A stretch of DNA of 60,922 bases, the filler included, from Rhabdomonas costata (Eukaryota): the NCBI GenBank assembly GCA_019059605.1. It is 16 parts of 16 records of this genome, joined end to end, with 100 filler letters (N's around TTAATTAATTAA, not from the genome) between each part and the next. Parts side by side here need not be neighbours in the genome. Positions count along the whole stretch, not along the records: positions 3,908 to 7,638 come from JAHMHO010000585.1; 15 more parts are not named here. One strand, given 5' to 3'. Below the pieces are notes generated by a model that did not search any database, was not told the origin of the DNA, and was given only the letters and a program-made list of their open reading frames with translations. A program made the translations under genes and the position numbers. Positions 3,908-50,250 of the stretch are shown piece by piece (the first letter of the stretch is position 1; each line of letters starts with the position of its first letter).

Positions 3908-4186
3908 TGTTGGTTTGATCTATTCTGCGTGCTAGTGTATGACAGCGAAGAAGAAAAGTACATGCAACTGTTCGATGATGAAAATTTTATGAATTACAGA
4001 TTTCACACATTATATATGCACGATAAGATGATGAAGCTGTGGAGAAATTACAGGTCATGCATTTACTCTTTAGTGACGAGACATGAAAAGAAGAAGACGA
4101 AATTAAAAAAGATTGCCTATAGATCTATACTAAGACAATATTTTTGTGCAGATATAACAGAAATTATTGTTGAATTTATTTGCTAA
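3908..4186 (+). CDS. 5'-truncated ORFan with an F-box-like C-terminal motif
   Basis: The frame is open from the contig start and ends RQYFCADITEIIVEFIC*. Confidence 0.6.
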   Translation, partial: CWFDLFCVLVYDSEEEKYMQLFDDENFMNYRFHTLYMHDKMMKLWRNYRSCIYSLVTRHEKKKTKLKKIAYRSILRQYFCADITEIIVEFIC

Positions 4187-4214
4187 TTTTTAAAGTATAG
4201 AGTAATATTATAAT

Positions 4215-4496
4215 ATGAACTCGAAATTAAAACCTGAAGATTATGTTTTACGTTTTGGACGTTATAAAGATATGAAGGCTGTTGATGTAGCAAAAATAAC
4301 TACTGTAGATAGTGAAGGAAAGACTAATTATGTAGGAATTCGCTATTTAAAGTGGTTAATAGAACAAGCATGGTTCAAGCATATGGACATAATAAAACAA
4401 ATTTTGCAACCACAAGAAAATGAAACAGATGATGAAAAGGCAACAAGAATGCAAATTGTGGCAAAAGAACAACTTAGAATTAATCATAAACAATGA
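4215..4496 (+). CDS. Small protein with a DUF3820/QSregVF_b-like motif
   Basis: VLRFGRYKD...RYLKWL resembles the FGKYKG...YLxW motif; ATG lies in an AT-rich context. Confidence 0.65.
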   Translation: MNSKLKPEDYVLRFGRYKDMKAVDVAKITTVDSEGKTNYVGIRYLKWLIEQAWFKHMDIIKQILQPQENETDDEKATRMQIVAKEQLRINHKQ

Positions 4497-4554
4497 AGAA
4501 TATTATAGAATGATATTGATTACACCCATTTACATTGATTTTCATGATTCTAAT

Positions 4555-4588
4555 TTTTTATTCTCCTATGATAATAGGAGAATAAAAA
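4555..4588 (+). terminator. Perfect 15-bp stem, 4-nt loop hairpin after ORF 4215-4496
   Basis: TTTTTATTCTCCTAT-GATA-ATAGGAGAATAAAAA. Confidence 0.75.
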
Positions 4589-4597
4589 TATACAGCA

Positions 4598-4915
4598 ATG
4601 AAGAGGTTACACAGTGAAATAAACAGTAAGAAAGAGCTAAAAACAACCCCCGTGAAGTATTTATTGTGTGAAATATGTGGGAAACGGTGCTACAACTATA
4701 AGCTATGTAATCAGCCGTATACATACTGTAGTACGAATTGCCTTGAAGTTTTAATTCTTTCTCAAAAGAATGACTTCTTAGACGAAGACGCCCCTAGGTC
4801 GTCTACATTTTCGGATCTACGATCCGAAAACGTCAAAGAAAATGATAGCTTCATGAAAAGAGTACAGAGTAACGAAGATCTTATGGTATTAGAATCAAAT
4901 CAGTCGAATAAATAA
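4598..4915 (+). CDS. Small zinc-finger protein (TRASH/MYM-like)
   Basis: 105-aa ORF containing CEICGK...YCSTNC. Confidence 0.65.
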   Translation: MKRLHSEINSKKELKTTPVKYLLCEICGKRCYNYKLCNQPYTYCSTNCLEVLILSQKNDFLDEDAPRSSTFSDLRSENVKENDSFMKRVQSNEDLMVLESNQSNK

Positions 4916-4946
4916 TGAAATAATGGTTATTGTTTCATTATTTATT
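4907..4946. terminator. 18-bp stem hairpin overlapping the stops of two convergent ORFs
   Basis: AATAAATAATGAAATAAT-GGTT-ATTGTTTCATTATTTATT, with one G-U pair. Confidence 0.75.
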
Positions 4947-5277
4947 GTCCGTATTCAAAATTGTGGTACCAAATGGGATCTCCAATTCTATTTCTATTCA
5001 TTAAATCTATGATTTCATTTCCTGTTAACTTTCGGCTCCTAGCAGCTATATTAGTGCGCCTGTCTCTAATTTCACCCCATGTTTCTCCTTGATATTCGAA
5101 ATCTCTATATGCCCTATGCTGACGTGGTGGTAGCGGATTGTTAACTGCGATAGGTTGAACACGGGAGGAGCAAATGCCTCTTCCCTTCTTAACTGTCCTT
5201 TTTCTTGGTTTGTTCTGTTTTGCTATAGCACTCTTAACCTCCTTTTTGATAATGGAAACAATCTCTTTTTTATTCAT
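4942..5277 (-). CDS. Basic ORFan protein
   Basis: 111-aa ORF with a Lys/Arg-rich N-terminus containing KKGRG. Confidence 0.65.
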   Translation of the reverse strand: MNKKEIVSIIKKEVKSAIAKQNKPRKRTVKKGRGICSSRVQPIAVNNPLPPRQHRAYRDFEYQGETWGEIRDRRTNIAARSRKLTGNEIIDLMNRNRIGDPIWYHNFEYGQ

Positions 5278-5723
5278 GTGTATATATATACTAAGTTAAT
5301 AAAATAAATTTGAAAACAGCTTAAGAAATTAACGACTTTCATATATAATGGCAAACAANNNNNNNNNNNNNNNNNNNNNNNNNNNNNNNNNNNNNNNNNN
5401 NNNNNNNNNNNNNNNNNNNNNNNNNNNNNNNNNNNNNNNNNNNNNNNNNNNNNNNNNNNNNNNNNNNNNNNNNNNNNNNNNNNNNNNNNNNNNNNNNNNN
5501 NNNNNNNNNNNNNNNNNNNNNNNNNNNNNNNNNNNNNNNNNNNNNNNNNNNNNNNNNNNNNNNNNNNNNNNNNNNNNNNNNNNNNNNNNNNNNNNNNNNN
5601 NNNNNNNNNNNNNNNNNNNNNNNNNNNNNNNNNNNNNNNNNNNNNNNNNNNNNNNNNNNNNNNNNNNNNNNNNNNNNNNNNNNNNNNNNNNNNNNNNNNN
5701 NNNNNNNNNNNNNNNNNNNNNNN

Positions 5724-6596
5724 AAGTTAGTTGAAAACGATATTGATATCGACATTCTCAATTATGTTAAGAACATAAACCAACAGTTCTACAATATTGA
5801 TATTGATTTTATTGATGATTTTATAAGTCTTGTGGACAAAGACTACTGTTGCATTCCACATGAGTTTCTAAAAGCATGTGGAGTTACTCAACTAACATCA
5901 GGGTCAAATGATGTTAAGAAGATTTTATTAAATAATAATGGTGTAGAAGAAAAAGACTACATCGTCCAGCTCCGCCAAACGGCGGACCTGCAAGAACAGA
6001 TCACATACGTCTTACATCCAATAATTTTTAAAAAGATTTTAATTAGGAGCAGAAACACAGATAAATATGCAGATTATTATTTACTTCTTGAGATGTGTGT
6101 GAAATATTATAATGATTACTACCAATTCAAATTAAAAAAGAAAATAGAAGAAGATAACAAAATAAAATTATTACTTTTAACTGACAGTGAAACATTGGAT
6201 AACTTTACTATTTTTAAATGTGATGAAGATACACTATTTATAAGAAAGAATCGGAGAGACAAAGGATACTTATACACTCCACATGACTATACTGAATATC
6301 CATATGCACTTATTAATGGAAGTAATAGTAATCTTACAAAAATAATGAAAGCGTGTAAAATTAAACAAAGTAACCAGATAGTAAAAATTAAATGTCCATC
6401 ATATAATAATTTTCTAAAGAAAATAAAAGAAGACTTAGGGGATAAAGTTGAAAGAAAAACAACCGAGTATGAAGATGAATTAGAGAATGATGCAACAAGA
6501 ATAAGTGTAACACGATTCTTTAGACTTAGAAATATATCTGAAGATGAATTTGTTGAAGCAATAAATAAATTGCACATTTCAAGAGGATCACAGTAA
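5724..6596 (+). CDS. MSV199-like domain protein (start lies in or before the N gap, possibly ATG 5348)
   Basis: The frame is open from 5724: KLVENDIDIDILNYVKNIN..IDIDFIDDFISLVDKD.CCI.H..L...Y.LHP..FK..L.RSRNT.KYADYYLLLE.CVKYYNDY. I recall this pattern from large DNA virus proteins. Confidence 0.65.
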   Translation, partial: KLVENDIDIDILNYVKNINQQFYNIDIDFIDDFISLVDKDYCCIPHEFLKACGVTQLTSGSNDVKKILLNNNGVEEKDYIVQLRQTADLQEQITYVLHPIIFKKILIRSRNTDKYADYYLLLEMCVKYYNDYYQFKLKKKIEEDNKIKLLLLTDSETLDNFTIFKCDEDTLFIRKNRRDKGYLYTPHDYTEYPYALINGSNSNLTKIMKACKIKQSNQIVKIKCPSYNNFLKKIKEDLGDKVERKTTEYEDELENDATRISVTRFFRLRNISEDEFVEAINKLHISRGSQ

Positions 6597-6628
6597 AACA
6601 ATAATATTGCTATGCAATATTATTGTTT
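6596..6628. terminator. Perfect 15-bp stem, 3-nt loop hairpin filling the gap between convergent genes
   Basis: AAACAATAATATTGC-TAT-GCAATATTATTGTTT. Confidence 0.8.
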
Positions 6629-6629
6629 C

Positions 6630-7394
6630 TTATTCGTTGATAATATAATATTCAAATGCTAGATCTTTATTAAGTGCATAGTCAAATTTTATTCTAAAAT
6701 ATCCGTCATTTCCAAATGTTGTGCCATGACTATTCAAGATTTCCAAGGTATCTGTTGCATCATCATAACCAATAGCAACTATTGCATGACCTCCAAGGAC
6801 ATCATCATTAAGTGCTGGTAACTCTAGAATATCATTTTCTTTGGCTATCCTAAAAAAGTTAGAGTACACCATAATACCGAATAAGATTGGTTTCTGAAGA
6901 ATGGCTAGAGCATATTTTATATTGTATCGTGATGGTACTATTTGTTTATCAGAAATAAAAGGACATTTATTAATAGTTATTGACTCCTGAAAAATTTCTT
7001 TTGGTGGCACATCATTAACTTTTTCTTCTCTATACGGATATTTTACTTCATCGATATAATGGTATTGAGAAAGTGCCGTAAATACTCCTTTTAGTGTTGC
7101 TCCTTGATCCTGAACTGGCAGCATACAACCATTGTCAACATATCGTGTACAAAAGTACATATATAACCGGCTAATATTGCAATCTACCTTATCACTTAGT
7201 AAAAGGAAATTTGATGTTGCATTAGCTGAACAAGATGATAATGATAATTGATCAAACACTTGTTTTACTTTATTCTTTAAACTAAACTGAGAGGGTAATT
7301 CGATTTTCTCACAAGGTGGTAATGATAATTTTCTCTCTTTCGGATCAACTTTAGAACGTTTTAAGCCGAACTTATACTGACAATTAGAAGTCAT
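6630..7394 (-). CDS. Papain-family (C1) cysteine protease, xylellain-like, no signal peptide
   Basis: DQLSLSSCSANA (Gln, Cys), SRLYMY, DQGATL, GGHAIVAIGYDD (His), LNSHG..FG.DGYF (Asn). Confidence 0.92.
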   Translation of the reverse strand: MTSNCQYKFGLKRSKVDPKERKLSLPPCEKIELPSQFSLKNKVKQVFDQLSLSSCSANATSNFLLLSDKVDCNISRLYMYFCTRYVDNGCMLPVQDQGATLKGVFTALSQYHYIDEVKYPYREEKVNDVPPKEIFQESITINKCPFISDKQIVPSRYNIKYALAILQKPILFGIMVYSNFFRIAKENDILELPALNDDVLGGHAIVAIGYDDATDTLEILNSHGTTFGNDGYFRIKFDYALNKDLAFEYYIINE

Positions 7395-7475
7395 TATACA
7401 ATGTATGTAGAAAATTTTATTTTATCCAGACTTTCATGATGTAGTAAATTACTGAACCTATAATTGACATTACCG

Positions 7476-7551
7476 TTCAGAAATGATTTTTGCTCAGCAA
7501 AATCATTTCTGAATGATTCTAGATTGAAGTTGCATCAGCACACTTCAATCT
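7476..7551. terminator. Two tandem hairpins
   Basis: TTCAGAAATGATTTTTGCT-C-AGCAAAATCATTTCTGAA (7476-7513) and AGATTGAAGT-TGCATCAGCAC-ACTTCAATCT (7521-7551). Confidence 0.65.
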
Positions 7552-7738
7552 GGGAACCATATACACAATAAATCCCACATTTATACTTTATCATCAGAAA
7601 AAATTAATATATTTGGTAAAATGGTTTGCCAAAAACAANNNNNNNNNNNNNNNNNNNNNNNNNNNNNNNNNNNNNNNNNNNNTTAATTAATTAANNNNNN
7701 NNNNNNNNNNNNNNNNNNNNNNNNNNNNNNNNNNNNNN

Positions 7739-8560
7739 TTTTCGGAGTTGGGGTTCGGGTTCATGTCATGGTTGGGTTACGGTTTGTATCGCTACGGATC
7801 TTCTTCTTCTACAGCTACGGCTTGGTTGGACTTGGGTGTGGCGTGGTGTTGAGCTGGTGCTGTTGGGTTGCTAGGTGTGCTATGTGGTGTCGGTATCGTT
7901 GGCTAGGTTGGTCTGTAGAGTTTGGGGCTGGGAGTTGGTGGGGTCGAGTGTGCAGGTGTTTCCTACGATGCTAGTGGATGATTCGGCGTGTAAGGGTCTG
8001 GTGATGGTGTGCGTGGTGGTGAGGGTGCTGGTGTTGGGGTTCGTGGACATGCGGTGGTGCCTGGGGTCGAGGTGTGTGTTGCAGCGTTGTGGCTTTGGGC
8101 GTGTGTTGCGGTGGTGTACTTGGTGCTCGATGTGTGCTTGCCTTTCGATGTGTCATTCTGGGTGTGGTGTTGCGGTATGGTGCTCTTTGTGACTCCGTTG
8201 TTGTGTCTTGGATAGCGTGGGTGGGTGCAGGTGGTTGGGTAGGTAGGTCAAGGTGTTTCCGAGTGTGGTGCCACGGTGTCGTGGTGGGTGATGGCTTCTT
8301 GTGTGCAGGTGATTCGTGGTGGTTGGGCGTTGGGTAACTGGGTGTAGCAATGTGTGTACTTCTGTGTCCGAATGTGGTTGGTGTTCGTGCTTCATGCGTT
8401 CTGTGTGGCTTTCGTTTTGTGCGTTGTGGTCGTTGGCTGGGTCTGATGGTGCGTTAGGAGTCGTGTAGGGTATGCCGTTGGGCGGATTGGCGGGGTTGAG
8501 TCTTGGGGTTGGTGTTGCATCGTTGCTGTAGGTGGGTCTGAGGTCTTAGTGTTCTGTGAT
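7739..8560. other. Strongly G/T-skewed non-tandem tract
   Basis: The + strand is depleted of A and C over about 820 bp, with an abrupt end. Confidence 0.7.
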
Positions 8561-8726
8561 GTCCGAGTGGTCAGCCAACCACTCTCTACTCACCATGCTT
8601 GCTGCATCAGTATCGCAGCCTTTAACGTCTGTGCTTGGGGGTTTCTGCGGCCCCGCTGGTCCCACCCAATATCTGGATATTCTCTGGACAATGGGGACAA
8701 GTGTATTTTTTGGGAGGGAGGCGGGA

Positions 8727-8935
8727 GGTTAATACCGTTAAACGTTTAAAACTGTTAAACGCCAAATTGTTTTTGTTTTTCACAGTATTTTCCGAGCACG
8801 GGGTCAGTTCAATTATGCGTGCGCTGATGTGGATTGTGTTATTTTTGCGGAAGGTGTTTAGGTTTATCGTTATTATGCACCATAGACGATTTTGACGAAT
8901 TTGAGAAAACGCTTAACGGTGTTAAACGTTTAACC
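8727..8935. mobile_element. Possible MITE with inverted ends built from GTTAAACG motifs
   Basis: GTTAAACGTTTAAAACTGTTAAACG near 8737 is roughly the reverse complement of CGCTTAACGGTGTTAAACGTTTAACC ending at 8935. Confidence 0.4.
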
Positions 8936-10476
8936 ACAATACAACAACCACCTGAAATCTGTGGGATGGTTATTTTTCGCACTATGGAAAACCGAAGCGG
9001 AGGGAAAGCAAGTTTTGAATTTGCACTCAAATGTATTGTGCAGGCGTGGAAGTGCGGAAGTCTACAGCTCACAGAGGGCGCGTTGTCACTTCACTATCTC
9101 TGTCTGATATCCACTTCCAACCCTCATGTCTTTGGGACGGTTGTGATGGTCTCGGAGAGCACTGCGGACAGCGCGGCGATGAAGTTCTAGTTCCGCAATC
9201 TGGGACGCATTCTGGTACCATGGAAGGTTCAGATCGTGACGGTGTAAGAGATGCTGCAGGAGAAGGACGACTCGACTGCAGACGCGAATGCTAATATCAC
9301 TCCAAGAAAGCCGACCGAGGCATGGGTGCAGGCAAATGGCTGGAGGAACCTGAAGCCCACACGACCGCAGCGCGCTTCAGCATTCAACGACATTACACCT
9401 CTGAACGCCCCTCCACACCCCACTCACTGGACCGGACCCTGATTATCAGAAACGTGAAATCAAATCCGCACCGATGAATAAATCGGCTATTGACGCAAGC
9501 ACGCACACTCACTCGCACTCAACACACACTATCTATCATCAGCCATGCGGTGAAGAGAGAAACTAGCTGCGTGAGATCTACGGAAGGGACCCATTTCGAG
9601 ACTGGTGGCAACGACTCGTGCCAGATGCCACAGCTTCCCATTCCTCCAAGACAACAAAGCAGACAACGTGCAGGAAGACTCCACCCACAGAGGGCTACCC
9701 ACGCAGGATCTTAGTACTTTGGCCAAGTTGAGGCACCTCATCATCATCATCTCATATGTCACCAGATGAATGCCGAGTCACCAGGAAAGGACGAGGATAG
9801 CACAGGTCGGCAAGCCGGTCTGTGTGAAGACAAAGTGCGGAGAGTAGGTTTTGAGGCGACACGAGTCGCCAAGACAATAAGAAAATTGCGAGGGAGCAGT
9901 TAACGCTTGGAGATTGACCAGGAATGCTGACATTGTTATTCCTTTTCAAAACCACCCTGTTTTGCAACTACCTTCGGTTTTCTACCCAAAAATCTAACTA
10001 CGACAGCTTTGTTTTCTGAGCGGGTGGTCTCCGACGTGGAATTTCCCAGTGAATCTGCACCAGACCCACATCTGCCGAGGCCACTACTGTTCCTCATTTA
10101 CCTTTAGGAGGCATGTAGTTCCTGAAGTGTTGCATTCAGGAGATTGAGATTGCGACATAAGCGAATCCATAGTCACTGAATCTGCAACTAAACCGAAAGC
10201 GTTTCAAGCAGTTAATATTGATTATAGTCGATAAGTAAACGCGTTGGTTGTGAACAACTATGTAAGGGTGTACGCATTGCTTGGTAAATACAAGTGCGTC
10301 TGTTATTTTGTGTGATTTCAACCGCCTTTTCAGTAGTGTTGGGCTAAACATTTCTCGAAAGACAACCATTGATGGACTGGAAAAGGCGCCAAGCTCATAT
10401 ATTTAGGCGTGATGTCACCTATGTGGTCCAAGAACAACATGCATATGACGTATTCCGAACGACTGGAAGTATAATC

Positions 10477-11144
10477 GGCATACGTTCAGCAGTGAACCTT
10501 TTTCTAGGGGACACGTGCATCGCTTCCTAACAATATGTGAATTAAATATCTTGTCCTAGGGGACACGTGCATGGCTTCTTAACCCCCTGCGAGATCAAAT
10601 ATTACAATATTCACTGGAAATGTCCATTGCGAATGCGCTTCATCAACGAAAGAAAGGGGTCCTTGCCATCCAAGTTTGCTCACTGGAACTCCTCCATATT
10701 AGGGCCGCCTATCACTCCAGCACCCCAGGAAGTCTCATAGTTCATAACACATTGCCGAAACCTACCACTCCAGTCAGCAACAGTAGCGCGACCATGGCCC
10801 AGCATGTGCTCCTCCCTTAGCCCGGCATAGTCATGAGCCCACAATTAGGCCAAAACAACGAACTGTTTCAAAGAAATTTAGAGCCCTTCAGTGGACTATC
10901 CACAACAGCCGGCACTCTAAGGCGGCACTTCTGGTCAGTACACGCAAGCCCAGGCTTTCCCCAGTACACACTTCATCTGGGAGCCACATTTCGAGCACGT
11001 AGAAGGGGGCTCTCGGAGAACCCCATAACCGCTCAGCCACTCTTGGAACTTTCTGTCGTCATGGCAGAGCTCCAGGACACATAATATCAACATGAGCAAT
11101 AAAAGGAGCCTTAAATAAAAAAGGTTCACTGCTGAAAGTGTGCC
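10477..11144 (-). mobile_element. Merlin (IS1595/ISXO2-like) DNA transposon, internally deleted
   Basis: TIRs GGCATACGTTCAGCAGTGAACCTTTTT and its near reverse complement; TSD GTATAATC/GTATAATG. Decayed transposase WLSGYGVL.EPP..CSKCG...CTDQKC...TVADWSGRFRQC...IGGPNME. Subterminal 52-bp tandem units. Confidence 0.85.
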
Positions 11145-11339
11145 GTATAATGGCAGTATAATCAATCGAGCAGAAGATACAATTCAAGAGGAGAGAGAAA
11201 GCTGCCACCACGCCTTCTAGTCAAGATGAAGCTTGGTCTCATGAACATCTATCGCAAAATCTTTGTCTGCCGTGTCTTAGGGTGCCATTGAAACAGACAG
11301 TTTGTGCATCTCTGCTTCCAAGTCTGCAACCATTAAATC

Positions 11340-11453
11340 CTACCAATCACAAAATAGACCTGGTGAATGATGCCAAGGTTCCAGCTCAAAGTTCCCCAAA
11401 GTTCCTCAAAGTTGCCCAATTCCACCATTGAAGATCAGGAGTTACTAAAACAA
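11340..11453 (+). mobile_element. Possible Gypsy pol remnant
   Basis: NHKIDLVNDAKVPA...QELLKQ resembles the segment preceding Gypsy reverse transcriptase. Confidence 0.35.
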
Positions 11454-12784
11454 NNNNNNNNNNNNNNNNNNNNNNNNNNNNNNNNNNNNNNNNNNNNTTA
11501 ATTAATTAANNNNNNNNNNNNNNNNNNNNNNNNNNNNNNNNNNNNNNNNNNNNGGAGTGGGGTACGAATTAATCAGCTCTCTTCAAACAAACAATTCAAT
11601 GGATTTTCTCACCTTAGGTACGCTTAAATTTTAGAGGTGGCAGAAGACCCCTTTCACTCTCCAAGGCGTCACACTCAGAGTTACCACTTCTAAAATTTAA
11701 GCGTACCTAAGGTGAGAAAATCCATTGAATTGTTTGTTTGAAGAGAGCCGATTAATTCGTACCCTTCCCCGCAAAAAAAGAGAAATGACCGAATCGCTGG
11801 GTGCACTGAAGCCGGAGCTCTCCACAAAATGCAACGGCAACTGCATTCACAATCGAAGAATTGCCGCCGCCACGTGGCCACGGTGTTTGAAAGAGCGCCG
11901 CTGCCTTTAACGAGAAGTCCTCCAACACCTTTAGTGCGTTGCCGGATCCGGTGGCTCTGAAAAATTCGCCATCCACGCTTGAACGACGTACAGACGACCC
12001 ATTTACTTCTTCTTCAACTTCTGTCGAACCACTTTACAAATCTGCTCTGAGGTTACGTCTTGCTATATGAGCGGAAGAGAATGGGAGGGGGGGCGAGAAT
12101 GGATGGCACGAAAAACAAGAAACACGGGTACTCCAACACAAAGCGAGATCCTTCGCATTCAAAGAAGCTGATGACAGAAAAAGCAGTGAAAAAAATTGGC
12201 AACCTGCTGCTCTGCTTCTGACAGCTATACCATGCTACACGTCATCTTCGCAGCATGATCGCGGTGAGATGGATCATGACACTTCCGCATGATCGCCTTC
12301 ACACCTGACGCCAACCGCTCTCAAATTGATGGCACCTGGCACCTGGCACCTGACCAGCGAAGCATCGCGCATTTCCGGAGGAAACTGAAGCCCATTTACA
12401 CACTGAGCGATGGCCGCACCGAACCATCTGCGTTTCATTGACTCGCTCGGTTAAGGCATCTTGAGGGTGCTCATTGTCAGCACGACATAAATGAGTTTTT
12501 GGTCGTCAGATCGTCAGACCCCGTCTGAAAAAAGCTGCAGGAAATGCACACAAACACAGTTCAAGGCGTAAGAAAATGCAAAGTGTCCGTAAAGCATTCG
12601 GCAGAAAGAAAAGCAGAGAGGAGGCAGGGGGGAGGTACAAAGGTGAAAACCTTGCCAAAGCCATTCAGGAGGGCAGAAAGGAGGTGCGGGTGCAAGATGG
12701 GTGGTTCGGATGTCTGGTTGGCGCAACAAGCGTATCCTCAACGCACACCACCCCTACCCCGACCCCCCACGGCATTCCCTCTCT

Positions 12785-15603: not shown

Positions 15604-18600
15604 CTGAGAATGAAAGGGGTAAACTGTGTGCGTGTGTGCGTGTGTGCGCGTATGCGTGTGCGTGAGCCGCAATTTGAAGACAAACACTCGACAATACAGG
15701 CCATTGGAAAAGAAAAACCGTCTGTATATACGTGCCCTGAATTATGAGATGTCGCGAACCGGCTTGTTAACCGGATACCTGGATGGCTGCTCCGCCCGGA
15801 AACCCGGAAACTAAGACTGAGTGATGCGTACCGCTGCTCTGTCCAATCCTCAACAAGTGATCGGGATATAATCCCCCATAGCGTCGCCACTGAGATGAAG
15901 CCGCTCTTCATTCCCGGCGACCGCCAAGGAGCAAAATGCAAGCAGGGAGAATAATGGAAAAACCCTTTTGATGGACACCCCGTTTGTTGTCTTCAACTTA
16001 GTCTTTTCCAAGGCCATTCCTGGCCCAGATGAGCTAGAGAGAAGGAGAACCACGTGGCAAAGCCCCCAAAAAAATTGGGTTTTCTTTTATACTTCTTGTG
16101 TGTTCTAAATAGTGTGTGGGTTGATTTGTCCTGAAACCAAATTATATTTTGATTGTTAATCTTTCTTCGGGTCACCCCTCCACAAATCCTCTGAGGCGGC
16201 GTGGCCTTCACCCGCTGAGGTCCTAATCAGTCACATATGAGAGAGAGGTTGGATAAGGTCCAACCGGAGGGACGGAGAAGGCAAAAAGACCCCAGAGCGA
16301 TCAAGTGAGATAAAGGATTTGTAAGGAAGGTATAAAAGAGGAAAATGCAAGAAGCGATCCGACGATCACAGCAGATAAATGGTACCCTACGATATAAAAA
16401 GATAATACGCTCTGATAAATGCGAATGCTTATGGCAGGCAGTTAATATACATTTGGGAGAGCTTCGAGAATTTTGAGATAAAGTACGTGGGGATAAATGT
16501 TTACCAGCGTGAATGCCAATTGTTGTACTCGTTCCGTTTGCGTTTTGCTCAGTTTTCCAGCTAGATCTGACAGGACGCAGACCGCGCTTTCATGTTGTTG
16601 TTAGAGATAAAGAATCATTACAGGAAGATGTTGGTGTTCTTCAAAGCCAATTTCAAGATGTGATTTCTTGTCATTTGGGTATATTTTTGTCTGTGTCAAT
16701 TTGGGTTGTGAAATTAAAGATGCTTACATATTTTACAGTTCACAGCCAAAACCTTCAGCGGAGTGAGGCGAAAGCGAGGCTAGCAGGAATAGGTGTGAAG
16801 GTTAAGAGAATAACATTCTCACTCTGCCTGTGCTTCTGTGCCGTTATTTTCTTGCTTTCATTGTTTTTTGGTGGGAATGGCGTAAGCGGACGTCTGGCTA
16901 GAGGCAAGACCTCCAGAATAACACCTCCCTGATGGCAAAAACAAGTTTCAGTAAGGAAGAACAACTGATTTGGTTCATGGCCTTGTTGCAAAGTACGTCG
17001 TCTGAGTGTCAGAAAGCGCGGAAAATGTTCGAAACAATGTAAATGTACCTATTGTACTTTGTAACTGAAGAAAAGAATGGTAGCGCGTGGTCGGGTAGAA
17101 GCCGAACTGAGCCCGGTAGCGAATGCACCTCAGTGTCATAGTAGTGTACAACAGGGTGGTAGGACGCTGTTGCGTGGTCATTGAAACCACAGCAGATGGA
17201 CGTACATGCCAACTTGAGGGCTCTGTGACCCTATTCGGAGCGCATACGGATGTGTGATGACTCATGGTGTTTGTATCTGCCTAGGTAGTAGCATAGGGTG
17301 TGGTGTTACACTTACCATCTATGTGTTTACCGTACCAAGCCAACATTAGGGTAAGGTCAACCATGACATGGCGCCATCCCATTCATCATAAGGGTGGTAG
17401 GAGCGTAACAACCCTGTCAGTCTATCAATGCTATGAGTGATGTGGTGTTGGGGTATGGGCCATGGCATGGTGTCATCCCACCAAGTGTGATGATATGTAA
17501 TCACATGCACTAGTTGAGCCGATGTCATGTTGTGGTATAGTCAATGAGGCCAACCCACCAAGTAAAGGGGGAGGTGTAACAACCTAGTAAACCCTAACCC
17601 GAACACCAACGCGAAATAAAACCCCAAACACCCATATTTCCCCTTACAGCCGAAATGCAAGGCAGAAATCCACGATACCAACCCCATTAACCCAGGTAGA
17701 AACCACGCCCTGACCCCAAACACCCGAATACCCCACTGTTTAGACGCCGATAGATCCAATCCAAGAATGCCCGAACCCAAAACGCGAACCCAAATACCCA
17801 CGCGAAAAAAACACGCAGGGTGAAAAATTCCACCCTCCACCCAAAATTACCAAAAACAACCGTTTAATACCCGTCATATATGCGGGCCAATGAAAATGAT
17901 GTACGGTGGAGGAACCAGGACCCCAACACGACCTTTCTGCATCTGCATAAAAAGATACAAAATACACCATTTACTGCTTGCCACTTTTTTGCTCTTTTTT
18001 CTTCTCCGGTTCATAGTCTTAAAGTGGTGGTTTATACTCTTTGATAGGGTTATCGTATAAATTCCGTTGGGGGTGAAAAAGATAAAATGCAAAAAAAAAA
18101 AGGACGATGGTTAGGGTCAAAAAACCGGGGGCGTGGTGGCAGGACTACCAAATTGGGTAAGTGTACCACCTTAGAACACCCCGATACCCCGTGTTGACGG
18201 GGGTACGGTGCCTGACGCACTCCGGGGTCCCCCGTATGGTGGTCGTGTATTGACTATGCTCAGATTACCCTAAATGTGATGTTAATTTGCTTCCCCGGCA
18301 TAAACCGCGTTCGCTTATCCACCCATTTCGCTCTAATGATGGTCCCTGTTTTTCTCGGGCCCATCATGTTTGTGTGTTCTGTCATGACGCAAGGAGAAGT
18401 CGTATGGGCGAGGTTTGGCCGCAGGTGTCGGTGATGGTGTTTTTGTTGATGTTCTATGGATTTTTTTCGCCTATGTATGTCGGAAGATTTGGTGGGCAGA
18501 GGGTAGATGGGTTCGTTTTGGTGTTTTTGTGTCGGTTTCGTTTCTCTAGATGTGTTTGCTCGGGGCTCTCCGTGTGTTGTTTTGTGTTACGCGCCCTGGG

Positions 18601-46125: not shown

Positions 46126-49100
46126 CTACACGGAAGTCTTTGCCAAGCTGACCACCACCTTCCAGTCGTGCGATGACAGCGGCTTGCAAAGGAACTTCGT
46201 GAACCCCGCGTCATAGCACCGCGCCTCGTGGCCCGCGCCGTGGTTCGCAGTGAGGGCCACAATGGGGGTGCTGCCGTGCAAGGGGTGCGCCCGAATCCTA
46301 CGGCAGGCCTCCAGCCCACCCATCACGGGCATGTTCAGGTCCAGTAGAATGACGGAGTACCTTTTGATGGAGAGTGCCCACCCGCTAGTGAGTGAGAGGA
46401 GGTAACACGGAGGCTGAAATGCTGCGACGAAGTTGCCACGCAATGAACAAAACTCAGAAGTTAGAGACCTTGACCCCTAACCCTAAGTCAAAGAAGAAAA
46501 GGTGAGACTTGAAGTTGAAACAATATTTCTACGAAAAGGGCTCATGGAATCTCAAAGGAGAAACTTAATAACACTCAAAAAGTTGTGTTCTGAAAATGGC
46601 TGAAGAATTCTCCAAACCTTATCATCAGTGCATTATTGCGCAGATACGTGAAAACGTAAACACGATACGCAAAACCGATTTTATTGAAATGCAGACTCAC
46701 AACAGGGAACTGGAAAATATCGCTTGTACGGTAAAAACGCCACCCCTTTCTAAGTGCACCAAAAACTTACACTGTTGAGCTTGCTGGGGCAGAATTTTTC
46801 TAACACGTGCAGTTGCGTGTATATTGCTTCTCAGCAAAATACGGACGTCCGGATAAAGGTGCAAGGTAAACCAAAATCCAGAACAAGTATGAGACTGCAA
46901 TCCACCGCAGCACCAGTTGGTGCTATACCTGGACAAAGGTGTTACAGACATCCTGGGTATCCAAAAACCAAAACGAAGTGGCGCACACACATGACACGTC
47001 CTACTTCGACCAATGCGTCCTTTCAAATCGTCGAGTCACTGGAAACGATTTCACTCTGAAATCTCCGATTGAATTATTAAGGTCATTCAATTCAGAGCAT
47101 TAATCGATCCAATTAATTCAAATCAGTGAAAAGCGAAGAAAAAGGCAGAATACCGCCTGGCTTGAGCCAAATCCACTGCTTCGGAGCCATCATGAGCGCT
47201 GTCGACCAAGGTTAAGCCCGCACTGGCGAGCTGCCTGCAAGAAAAAAGCAGTTCAAAAGGCAACACTTCCTCTCAACATTTATTGATTAACTTGCAATTG
47301 TTAAAATGTCACCTCGAGCCGAAAATGAAAAACCACGGGACCAAAGTCTCCAATTACAACAAGTGCAGGCAACGGAGTCTAGTTTCTCCAGATTCACGGT
47401 ATAAAGAAGTCCTTTGGGAACTCAGTCCATAGTAGACAGGTGACCCACACAGACAGAGAAAATGCTGACGAAACCGATCTGTATTGGAGAAAATATCCAC
47501 ATGATCGATGGTGTAAATTGCAACTATATTTGAAATTTGATGTAAAATACAAACCAGGTTATAAAAGAGGGCGCAGCCGATGCAGGCAGGCCAGAGGTCT
47601 TTATATATGCAGTACAGTAGACCTCCTAAAACGCTGCGTAGGCCGCTCCTTGCACCCTCAGACCGGTATCCACCTGTGCCACTTGGTGGCTCTTGCCTTA
47701 ATTCTTCTTTAATCTTGTGCCGCATCTTTTGGAGGGTCTATCGACAGCACCCAACAAATGTAAAATGCAAACTGTCGCGTCTCAAGAACACGAATAATTG
47801 ATACCATTCGCAGAGGAATCTCGGAAAAAGCATCCGAAAATGCAACAACTAATCCCAAGCGGCAATAAAGGCCATTTACGCAATGCCCGCCCACCATCCT
47901 TTTCTAAGAGACAGGTGTCCGCCAGCTAAAGGACACTCTGCAACAAACCTGAGAAACAACTTATGGTTGACTTTGTTGTCCTCCGCGAGAAGAACACGAA
48001 TTTCTTTTCGCTCGGCATGAGTTTCCAAATCGCCGGGTCCAGGACCTTCCTGCACCACGGAGTTCACGGTGGAGGATTCCGGAATGGGAGCATCCGAAAA
48101 GTCACGCAAGCAAGCTCGAAGCTCTGAGACGTCCACGGGCGACTTGATGGAGAGATCTTGTGTCGGAAAGCTCAAACAGTCCGGCTTGGTCATTGTGTGC
48201 GGGATGGAAAGGCAGATCAGGCTGCCTTGCTGCCTCAGCACTGACACCTGCTCCGTGTCCTGCAGTGACGGATGCACAAACACCACATTGGGGGCAACCT
48301 CGCAGGAGGTGCTGGGTGTAAAGACGCACACCCCGATGTATCGCAGCATATTGGTGAGCGCCTCTCTGCGAGCGGTGTCCTCCTCAAGCACCAGCGCAGT
48401 GCATGAAATCCATCCCGAAAGATTCTTGATTACTGGGGCAGAAATCTCAAACCAAAACCGAGAGCCCTTTCCCTTCCCAGGGCTGCTGGCACAGATGCTG
48501 CCTCCCATCAAGGCTACCAGCTGCTGACAAATTGACAATCCAAGACCGGTGCCTCCCCTTCCATGGTCGGCTTGATAGAATTGCTCAAAAAGACTCCGCA
48601 GCTCTTCCTCCGTCATCCCGATTCCCGTGTCCGTCACGGTGACGCTTAGCTTCCCACTCGCAGCGGACCAGTCCACCCCAAGACTGATGCGCCCACCCGT
48701 GCAGAACTTAAGCGCGTTCCCCACTAGGTTCATCAGGACTCGATGAAGGAGCACCCGATCACACAGCAAACACGAGGGAACGTTGGGCGTGACGTCCAGA
48801 AGAAGTTCCGTCTTCTGCTCCATCGCTTGAACTTCGAGGATGCGCAGAACCTCGATGGCAAGCCGACGGATGCTCACCTTTTGGGGTGCAACCTTCATTC
48901 GTGCACTCCGAAGCTTGCCGAAGTCTAGCAGGTTGTTAATAAGCACCAGGGCATGCTGCAAGGCCGACCAGGCCTTTTGCAGAAGGTCCTTGCGGTCCTC
49001 TTCCTCCATTGAGCGGGTGTTGAGCACAATCTGCAGCGCTGAAAGGGCTGTGGTCAATGGAGTGCGAACGTCGTGTGTGATACTAGAGAGAGATGAGCAG

Positions 49101-49220
49101 TCATCGAACGCAGCACTGCCCCCCAAGTCTGAACTGTGCTCAGCGGCCTGCGAAGAGGAAGCCGTGGAATCGTTGAAATCAGAACCCTCCGCCGTATCCT
49201 TGGGTCGAGGAAGCATCCAC
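46126..49220 (-). CDS. Hybrid histidine kinase (HisKA, HATPase, pseudo-receiver, receiver), 5'-truncated; exons 47949-49220, 47154-47234, 46126-46360
   Basis: THDVRTPL, NLVGNALKF, DTGIG, LFEQFYQ, GGTGLGL, then VLLAEDNKVN, AHDGSEAV, ILLDLNMPVMGGLE, PIVALTAN, FLCKP. Confidence 0.95.
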
Positions 49221-50250
49221 CTGTGCAAAAAGAGAATACCAGGTGTAAACCATACAAGGCACACTTCTAACCATGAAGTCCTAATGGTGCTACAAACGCG
49301 ACCGAAATGAAAGGAGGGCAAATGGTCACACCCCACACAGAGAACTACTGTTAGCGGTGTTATGAATTCTTTCCACGAAGAAAGATAACAGACAAAATAT
49401 CTTTATCTGTGTGAAAACAGGGGACACAGCGAAAAAACCCAGTGGATGGATGGCAGACTGAGGGTCACATTCAGTGACACGTGGAAATTAAATTAACAAT
49501 CAAACAAACTGGCACATACCCCAACAANNNNNNNNNNNNNNNNNNNNNNNNNNNNNNNNNNNNNNNNNNNNTTAATTAATTAANNNNNNNNNNNNNNNNN
49601 NNNNNNNNNNNNNNNNNNNNNNNNNNNGTTGGGTGGGGGAGCGGGCAGACGACAGAAAAAAATGGGTGCTGCGTACTCGGAGCGGGAACGACACAATTTT
49701 TTTCTTTAACCTGGTAATGATCGCGAGAGACGCCGAAGAAGGAAGCATACGGGGGACTGCAGTCGTGCAATTTTCGGAAATGTCGTTAGGGGGAAAAGGG
49801 AAAGGTGAACTAGAATGCGAAACAGGGTGACCGGTGGAGGAAGCGCAGCGGAGAGTGGGTGCGTGGATGCATGGGACCGCAAACTGATTTTGAAACCGAA
49901 GGTGTCCCCCCGAAAAGGCAGCTCTCCAATCGGCTTAAACAAACATGGTACACCCCAGTTTGTTATCATTCACTAAGGCATTCCGTCCATGGGCACTGGT
50001 AGGCATTTAGACTCCCTGGTCAGAGGTGTTTCAAGTGCCTGTCACCTCAACAGTGCCCGCACACAAACAGCAGCAGCTATTCTCGGGGGGGGGGTATGCT
50101 GTACAGTAACAGATCTGATCAACAGGATTAGCACACAGGCACGAGAGAGCACACAAAAGGACACAGCGCATAAATGGCAAAGACGTTCTCCAATGGCAGA
50201 GCCGAAGGCCCCGCCGCTTTTTGAAAGGTCCATCCACACACAGCTGTGTG

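Follow-up and report, generated by a model that had tools for sequence, protein, structure and literature searches.

An AT-rich contig in the Rhabdomonas costata assembly is probably the accessory-gene arm of a polinton-like virus or virophage

We analysed a stretch of 60,922 nucleotides (the window) from the Rhabdomonas costata assembly GCA_019059605.1, in which 16 contigs of about 3.7 kb each are joined by spacers of the form N44-TTAATTAATTAA-N44. One of them, JAHMHO010000585.1 (hereafter the AT-rich contig), is probably the accessory-gene arm of a polinton-like virus (PLV) or virophage (Preplasmiviricota), a reading drawn from sequence homology and gene order to which we give a probability of about 80%. 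It would be a 3.7-kb piece of a small double-stranded DNA virus, and not giant-virus, bacterial or host DNA. The original prediction had proposed a viral fragment, from a giant virus, a virophage or a Polinton-like element, without choosing among these classes; a viral origin is upheld, and syntenic relatives allow the class to be narrowed. Likewise, its remark that one contig is far more AT-rich than the rest, at roughly 30% GC, proved correct: the contig measures 30.6% GC over 3731 bases, against 48.7-55.1% in the remaining 15 contigs.

Syntenic relatives and their hallmark genes

All six predicted open reading frames (ORFs) were recovered, on both strands (Table 1); the spacers are short, as foreseen, at 28-101 nt. 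A chance origin of such long open frames is unlikely in DNA this AT-rich, and five of the six have homologues. For those five, the closest relatives (34-79% identity) were found only on AT-rich metagenome contigs. A scan of JGI metagenome contigs with an alignment of ORF6, the C1 protease, gave 22 loci (numbered here from L001), of which 17 have 26-36% GC and are 50-62% identical to ORF6, and five have 65-70% GC and are 25-30% identical to it. Best hits were neither bacterial nor from an AT-rich eukaryote, the outcomes that had been set against a viral origin beforehand; only distant C1-protease matches lay on the contigs of 65-70% GC. The equivalent scan of IMG/VR gave one distant locus, L023 (29% identity), in which the C1-protease relative occupies positions 10001-10654 of a 36-kb contig of 32% GC.

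Synteny was established by tblastn of the ORFs of the AT-rich contig against the JGI loci, together with a gene-family table. The relatives share a conserved gene order: capsid, a small gene, a protease of 149 amino acids (aa), sometimes a gene of 72-77 aa, and the C1 protease. What follows the C1 protease, on the opposite strand, takes one of two forms. Either there is an ORF5-like gene (L004, L005 and L013, and nearby in L012), or there is a run of ORF3-, ORF2- and ORF1-like genes (L015, L011 and L016, and partly L001, L002, L008 and L009). The AT-rich contig combines both arrangements, with ORF4 and ORF5 between ORF6 and ORF3. In L015, the C1 protease (9980-10726, +) is followed by ORF3-like (10752-11117, -), ORF2-like (11140-11493, -) and ORF1-like (11529-11825, -) genes, a block whose order and relative strands are identical to those of the AT-rich contig.

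Locus L015 comprises 18,643 bases out of a 19,042-base contig (30.4% GC). The series of encoded proteins begins with a 1163-aa Ser/Thr-rich fibre-like protein, proteins of 264 aa and 241 aa, a P-loop candidate of 223 aa (5463-6134) and a protein of 550 aa. Next come the 149-aa protease (9285-9734), the C1 protease and the block of ORF3-, ORF2- and ORF1-like proteins, and the series closes with an HNH endonuclease (E 1.9e-13), a protein of 1376 aa and, at 16997-18016, an rve integrase (E 2e-12; 47.7 bits, cut-off 32.6). The 550-aa protein (7269-8921) was modelled with AlphaFold2 (AF2) from 23 sequences (pLDDT 72), and the model has the double jelly-roll capsid fold. Its first match in BFVD was the Sissi virophage capsid (E 6.8e-14), followed by adomavirus, the major capsid protein (MCP) of Qinghai Lake virophage, adintovirus, the mavirus MCP (8.5e-11) and giant-virus capsids, and a Foldseek comparison with solved structures placed Sputnik first (3j26_A, 3.4e-13), then a grouper iridovirus chain and mavirus (6g45_A, 1.4e-12). 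Members of the 149-aa protease family have invariant His, Asp, Gln and Cys residues; Peptidase_C5, the adenovirus protease, was matched by 2/7 of them (best E 4.8e-6), and the adenain chains in the PDB were reached only at E 0.19-0.41. For the 1376-aa protein, 21 of the 30 nearest ESM Atlas clusters carry PF03175 DNA_pol_B_2 with Endonuclease_7 (scores up to 0.97), the clusters being mostly labelled Eukaryota and Preplasmiviricota, and the motifs of family-B polymerases were read by eye.

According to passages of PMC11161782, the Polinton core consists of pPolB, an RVE integrase, an Ulp1-family protease, a packaging ATPase and major and minor capsid proteins. Mavirus-type virophages have this set too. 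Four members were shown by test in L015, namely the capsid, pPolB, rve integrase and adenain-like protease. The second long relative, L001 (10,058 bases), holds the 149-aa protease, the C1 protease, ORF3- and ORF1-like genes, a GIY-YIG protein (E 1.1e-7), a 1445-aa superfamily 1 (SF1) helicase protein and rve (E 2.6e-13). We favour a PLV or virophage over a giant virus because of what the syntenic AT-rich contigs of 10-19 kb encode: a capsid of the double jelly-roll type, an adenain-like protease, rve, and either pPolB or an SF1-helicase protein. The AT-rich contig would then correspond to a variable arm that complete relatives have between a morphogenetic module (capsid and adenain-like maturation protease) and a module for replication and integration (endonuclease, pPolB or SF1-helicase, rve).

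The two long relatives offered further observations. They have differing replication genes, the 1445-aa SF1-helicase protein at 3516-7853 in L001 and the 1376-aa pPolB at 12866-16996 in L015, together with the same protease/accessory block and rve, which looks like a module swap within one lineage. Beyond the integrase side, the ends of both (9740-10058 in L001 and 18465-18643 in L015, 180-320 bases) are markedly less AT-rich by eye, with short tandem repeats in L001, and could represent either the termini of the genome or host sequence flanking integrated copies. The 241-aa protein in the virion-gene region of L015 (4355-5080) contains a phospholipase A2-like domain that scores above the cut-off (PF08398, E 2.1e-8); in parvovirus capsid proteins this domain serves endosomal escape. 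Lastly, an open frame of 356 aa at positions 2-1069 of L009 takes in the end of the 149-aa protease and continues into the C1 protease with no stop between them; the two proteases may be fused here or linked by read-through.

Genes of the AT-rich contig

Table 1. Features of the AT-rich contig, with positions counted along the window.
Feature	Position	Strand	Remarks
AT-rich contig, whole	3908..7638		Probable accessory-gene arm of a polinton-like virus or virophage; from contig limits and from homology and synteny with L001-L016 and L021
ORF1	3908..4186	+	5' end truncated at contig edge; small protein, conserved C-terminal YFC-DI motif
ORF2, FGRYK protein, 93 aa	4215..4496	+	Relatives in L015, L016 and L011
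Hairpin, 16-nt stem	4554..4589		58 nt 3' of the ORF2 stop, directly before ORF3
ORF3, Cys-rich, 105 aa	4598..4915	+	Candidate zinc-binding protein; relatives in 7 loci
Palindrome, 18-nt arms	4907..4946		Across the convergent ORF3/ORF4 stops; candidate 3'-end signal in both directions
ORF4, 111 aa, basic N-terminus (KKGRG)	4942..5277	-	Near-orphan
AT-rich divergent spacer, 70 nt	5278..5347		Between the ORF4 and ORF5 starts; candidate promoters in both directions
Probable ORF5 start, ATG + 8 bases	5348..5358	+	Precedes the N run; same first three residues in P0058 and P0061
365-N run	5359..5723		Scaffold gap or masked stretch; real gap probably ~25 nt if ORF5 is intact
ORF5 body, 290 aa	5724..6596	+	MSV199/DUF3627/KilA-N-like putative DNA-binding protein
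Perfect palindrome, 15-16-nt arms	6595..6629		Between the convergent ORF5/ORF6 stops
ORF6, 254 aa, papain-family (C1) cysteine protease	6630..7394	-	PF00112 match; no propeptide domain
Non-coding contig end, 244 nt	7395..7638		ORF6 promoter-like stretch (TCT -17, TATA -4) and 17-nt-stem hairpin at 7474-7515

When all six ORFs were compared with Pfam, ORF6 alone was matched (PF00112 Peptidase_C1, residues 39-238, E 6e-10), and with 40 bits against a cut-off of 20.7 the C1 protease named in the original prediction is secure by gathering score. Since the match begins at residue 39 there is no room for a propeptide domain, and the N-terminus is hydrophilic by eye, with no signal peptide. Residues Q49, C55, H203 and N221 are invariant in 27/27 aligned sequences and align with the motifs of 3ois_A; catalytic roles are assigned to this Gln, Cys, His and Asn as in papain. 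That chain is the closest solved one to the ORF6 family profile (E 4.6e-27, positions 45-255), ahead of cathepsin B-like peptidases, and the entry, labelled just 'Cysteine protease', is presumably xylellain of Xylella fastidiosa, a bacterial enzyme. A large protein collection held 55 relatives of ORF6, of which 51 (53-70% identity) are unnamed and come mostly from contigs of 0.5-2.3 kb, and the other four are 25-31% identical, two of them named C1A family cysteine protease. The protease would act on viral or host proteins, with the cytoplasm, the virus factory and the virion as candidate places of action.

These matches bear on the idea that an AT-rich bacterium, endosymbiont, phage or organelle has contaminated the assembly. 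It could draw on the presumed bacterial origin of 3ois_A, on the distant relatives of ORF6 on GC-rich contigs and in named C1A proteases, on the PHROGs search, in which ORF6 alone was matched (phrog_16701 'peptidase', E 6.7e-14, all other matches being at E 0.016 or weaker), and on the leads of ORF2 toward phage-rich families. However, all close relatives lie on AT-rich contigs with eukaryotic-virus hallmark genes, and the polymerase and ATPase candidates of L015 found no match by tblastn in 50,697 phage records. Moreover, no Shine-Dalgarno sequence stands at proper spacing in any of the five upstream regions of the contig that are visible (0/5, by eye), and Rfam at gathering thresholds detected no RNA gene in the whole window. 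We therefore regard such contamination as extremely unlikely.

ORF5 is interrupted near its start by an internal run of 365 N, which the original prediction did not mention. Relatives P0058 and P0061 share its first three residues and arrive at the sequence after the gap eight residues later, so the most likely start of ORF5 is the ATG at 5348, with only about 8 codons missing; if ORF5 is intact, the N run overstates a gap of probably ~25 nt. A second internal run, of 340 N, was seen in another contig at 31867-32206; because of it, such runs look like scaffold gaps of the assembly and nothing special to the AT-rich contig.

In the large protein collection, 34 relatives of ORF5 were found (30-79% identity), none of them named, and those of full length (59-69% identity, ~301-303 aa) sit on short contigs. 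A cluster look-up of 10 relatives yielded neither names nor accessions. ORF5 itself matched no Pfam family at E up to 1; within its family PF12299 (DUF3627) was matched by 11/22 members and PF10553 (MSV199) by 0/22. An AF2 model from 22 sequences (pLDDT 79) gave 33 Foldseek matches in BFVD at E up to 0.001, headed by a Terrestrivirus MSV199 domain protein (2.6e-7). The matched proteins carry the labels MSV199, T5orf172, KilA-N, Bro-N, N1R/p28 and DUF3627 (the last at ranks 32, 33 and 42), with low TM-scores of 0.27-0.39, as expected for a multi-domain model. The MSV199-like character claimed for ORF5 thus stands at the level of the fold but not by Pfam on ORF5 itself. A PDB profile search with the ORF5 family found nothing at E up to 1, and VIA-align of the model against 48,161 chains gave no usable match, the best Z of 5.2 being driven by a long helix. 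We read ORF5 as a putative regulator that would bind DNA, of the MSV199/DUF3627/KilA-N kind shared with giant viruses.

ORF5 lends weight to a second explanation: the AT-rich contig would come from a mimivirid-like giant virus (Nucleocytoviricota) infecting or integrated in the protist, and the metagenome relatives would be virophages with borrowed genes. Besides the fold matches to giant-virus proteins of the MSV199, KilA-N, DUF3627 and T5orf172 kinds, a scan of IMG/VR with an ORF5 alignment gave 13 loci (L024-L036, 15-25% GC), seven with 'GVMAG' in their name, and most of them hold 2-4 copies per 20 kb of a domain 37-50% identical to residues 2-170 of ORF5. Two of their records were searched whole, one being a 951-kb bin rated 94% complete, and both have capsid genes of nucleocytoplasmic large DNA viruses (NCLDVs) above the Pfam cut-off. 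The 3'-end hairpins of the AT-rich contig also fit, hairpin-forming 3' motifs being given as a Mimiviridae feature in passages of PMC6163669.

Against a giant virus, the GC content of these loci is well apart from the 31% of the AT-rich contig, and AAAATTGA, a motif described as a Mimiviridae mark in passages of PMC6163669, stands upstream of 18/136 genes there (1.1% of background windows) and of 0/32 genes in the AT-rich contig, L001 and L015. The families of ORF6, ORF2 and ORF3 had no match in either of the two whole records, the giant viruses that this search covered, and the 13 loci contain no relative of the other ORFs of the AT-rich contig nor of any L001 or L015 protein. Pfam found no NCLDV core gene on the AT-rich contig. 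Moreover, the full-length relatives of ORF5 are on short contigs, relatives of ORF5 lie beside the C1 protease in four JGI loci, and the conserved neighbourhood belongs to a 19-kb contig with small-virus capsid, maturation protease, polymerase and integrase genes. Judged by gene content, one domain is common to mimivirid-like giant viruses and the gene block as a whole appears to be that of small viruses; we consider a giant-virus fragment highly unlikely.

The remaining ORFs are small. The frame of ORF1 is open from base 3908 and its relatives are longer at the N-terminus, so ORF1 is truncated by the contig end and the GTG start at 3929 is an artefact. It had been taken for an F-box-like ORFan, a description that has to be abandoned: relatives occur in L015 (at the position given above), L001 (1942-2346), L002 and L011, with a conserved C-terminal motif, and none of four family members (0/4) matched any F-box model in Pfam at E up to 1. 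The relatives of ORF2 are 37-48% identical, and the motif FG-Y...DVA...YL is kept in 4/4 sequences. Its leads are weak, one of four members reaching ExoX-like_C (E 0.014) and QSregVF_b (E 0.074) in Pfam, with Atlas scores of only 0.82-0.89 (0.82-0.84 for these two); ORF2 is possibly a small domain of the ExoX-like_C / QSregVF_b type.

Aligned with its relatives from 7 loci, ORF3 shows four invariant cysteines (C24, C27, C44 and C48), and longer relatives carry a second Cys/His cluster that ORF3 of the AT-rich contig lacks. The HIT-type zinc finger (zf-HIT, PF04438) was matched weakly by 2/7 family members (E 0.032), with no match for ORF3 of the AT-rich contig, and we regard ORF3 as a putative zinc-binding protein. 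A hairpin with a 13-nt stem (4805-4833) lies within its coding sequence, in a stretch absent from the relatives (alignment columns 70-88). For ORF4, 1.84 billion representatives were searched exhaustively with phmmer/HMMER, and the sole true relative was P0134 (113 aa, 49% identity). A second candidate, P0133 (E 7.6e-15), was rejected, being a repeat-rich protein with ten matches to one 27-residue stretch and a composition quite unlike that of ORF4.

Expression signals and integrity of the contig

In the five upstream regions that are visible, inspection by eye bore out the earlier statement that ATGs follow TATA-rich runs, with no consistent Shine-Dalgarno sites. Two hexamers, TTTTCT and GTATAG, were chosen by eye upstream of the genes of the AT-rich contig, L001 and L015, where they precede 9/32 genes (5.3% of background windows) and 8/32 genes (1.6%), respectively. 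In the giant-virus loci neither was enriched upstream (TTTTCT 6/136, GTATAG 0/136). Counting by position over 55 genes, a less biased approach, gave a clear preference: a TCT starts at -20 to -11 in 25/55 genes, with 7-8 in each of four bins farther upstream and 1 in the last bin, and a TATA starts at -10 to -1 in 35/55 genes. ORF6 has both elements (Table 1), its promoter resembling those of capsid genes in the relatives, and ORF2 has GTATAG at -20, as does its relative in L015.

Hairpins with a stem of at least 12 nt were more frequent than in simple shuffles: 5 in the AT-rich contig (mean 0.23, maximum 1, in 30 shuffles), 6 in L001 (0.53) and 4 in L015 (0.9). Nine of these 15 lie on a stop codon or at most 60 nt after one (coordinates read by eye), including the two palindromes at convergent stops of the AT-rich contig. 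Each gene would form its own compact transcription unit, in which a short AT-rich promoter lies directly 5' of the ATG (TCT at -20 to -11, then TATA at -10 to -1), and many 3' ends would carry a hairpin. TCTA is given as the late motif of CroV and ChlorV in passages of PMC13196603. The 3' hairpins, the TCT signal and the domain common to giant-virus bins hint at a possible virophage-like dependence on a giant virus.

These signals also bear on a further rival, a dead endogenous viral element: the AT-rich contig would be what is left, decayed and non-autonomous, of such a virus after fixation in the host genome. Such a remnant would account for a short contig with an internal gap and no hallmark gene, and for the 244 nt 5' of ORF6 being non-coding where 9/17 AT-rich relatives have the 149-aa, adenain-like protease gene directly upstream of the C1 protease. 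This end (7395-7638) has stops in all six frames, and contains no small gene of family F10, no relative of the 149-aa protease and no nucleotide homology to any locus; no recognisable terminus is present on the contig. Yet every ORF that can be judged is intact, the catalytic residues of ORF6 are conserved, the promoter-like and hairpin signals are retained, and the GC content has not drifted toward the ~50% of the other contigs. A dead remnant is, in our view, highly unlikely.

The other 15 contigs show broken frames, the longest stop-free frame being mostly 134-359 aa and once 508 aa, which fits intron-bearing eukaryotic DNA without being proof of it. When six long frames from these contigs were compared with Pfam, the sole match was the 508-aa frame (47879-49402, -, in a contig of 49% GC), a histidine kinase with HisKA and HATPase_c domains. 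All ORFs of the AT-rich loci were searched against the whole window by tblastn, and matches were confined to 3908-7638, with none in the other 15 contigs. The AT-rich contig may be integrated in the eukaryote-like genome assembled with it, or it may come from a free virus genome sampled at the same time.

Several points weigh against assigning the AT-rich contig to a PLV or virophage. As the original prediction had observed of capsid and ATPase, the contig carries no hallmark gene, be it capsid, pPolB, rve integrase or Ulp1/adenain protease, and the class assignment rests on a synteny of three to four genes with relatives that are only 34-68% identical. In L015, the pPolB call rests on language-model neighbours and motifs read by eye, the 1376-aa protein having no polymerase match in Pfam, PDB sequences or the phage records (tblastn); the packaging ATPase (223 aa) and penton (264 aa) are candidates by position and eye only, with no Pfam or phage match. 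Single-protein scans of IMG/VR with ORF6, ORF5 and the L015 capsid found no close relative, and ORF4 has no tblastn match in any fetched metagenome locus. Because the hexamers had been chosen from the same data, they were re-tested on 24 genes of held-out loci, where enrichment was weak (TTTTCT 3/24, p 0.08; GTATAG 2/24, p 0.02), and the shuffles of the hairpin control were not dinucleotide-preserving. Finally, the identity of the N-terminal ~150 aa of ORF5 to multi-copy giant-virus genes makes a giant-virus origin of at least that gene real.

Taken alone, a fragment of 3.7 kb that lacks hallmark genes amounts to a modest finding. Most metagenomic lineages of PLVs and virophages have no known host, and should the contig be part of the co-assembled eukaryote or of a virus infecting it, an apparently common metagenomic lineage (51 protease and 34 ORF5 relatives) would gain a host. 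The conserved additional protease, and the domain that giant-virus bins have as well, would be handles on giant-virus dependence and on additions to the standard capsid-maturation machinery. A bolder and rather doubtful proposal is that the contig represents an undescribed mavirus-/polinton-like clade with the C1 protease directly after the adenain-like protease, made up of virophages of very AT-rich mimivirids that were the source of the ORF5 domain, and that it gives the first link of this clade to a cellular host.

Comparison with known systems

At the level of single proteins, the profile match of the ORF6 family to PDB 3ois takes in the Cys, His and Asn motifs. The relation is distant, similar relatives on GC-rich contigs being merely 25-31% identical to ORF6, and the two differ in that ORF6 has NSHG where 3ois_A has NSWG and sits in a viral gene block. 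ORF5 resembles the MSV199/DUF3627/KilA-N/Bro-N families of Nucleocytoviricota, its model matching proteins of Terrestrivirus, Hokovirus, Heterosigma akashiwo virus, iridoviruses and entomopoxviruses (E 2.6e-7 to 1e-3) and its N-terminal domain being multi-copy in giant-virus bins; unlike them it passes no Pfam model, and nothing in the giant-virus loci is related to its C-terminal half.

At the level of the genome, L015 is like Polintons/Mavericks and PLVs in the four core members shown by test, and differs in that its packaging ATPase and penton are candidates. Terminal inverted repeats and target-site duplications did not come to light. L001 has an SF1-helicase protein in place of pPolB, and passages of PMC5499653 give a helicase fused to an inactivated polymerase as a PLV signature. 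The accessory block (C1 protease, Zn-finger ORF, FGRYK ORF and ORF1) and the pairing of a C1 with a maturation protease were not found in searches of full-text literature, supplementary files aside.

Set beside the mavirus-type virophages and the endogenous mavirus-like elements (EMALEs) of Cafeteria, the lineage resembles named virophages only at the level of the fold (8-13% identity), with no similarity detectable in sequence; the relatives have a conserved C1 protease gene beside the maturation protease, and the AT-rich contig itself is without core genes. EMALE types are separated partly by GC content and have diverse promoter motifs, according to passages of PMC8547959. Like the mavirus-type virophages and EMALEs described in passages of PMC8547959 and PMC11161782, the relative L015 combines a length of 19 kb and ~30% GC with pPolB, rve, an adenain/Ulp1-like protease and a double jelly-roll capsid, and a short promoter-like motif lies upstream of the genes. 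The lineage itself is without a name, and the kind of virus is well known, PLVs and virophages being abundant in water and in protist genomes (passages of PMC10120064, PMC7805220 and PMC8547959).

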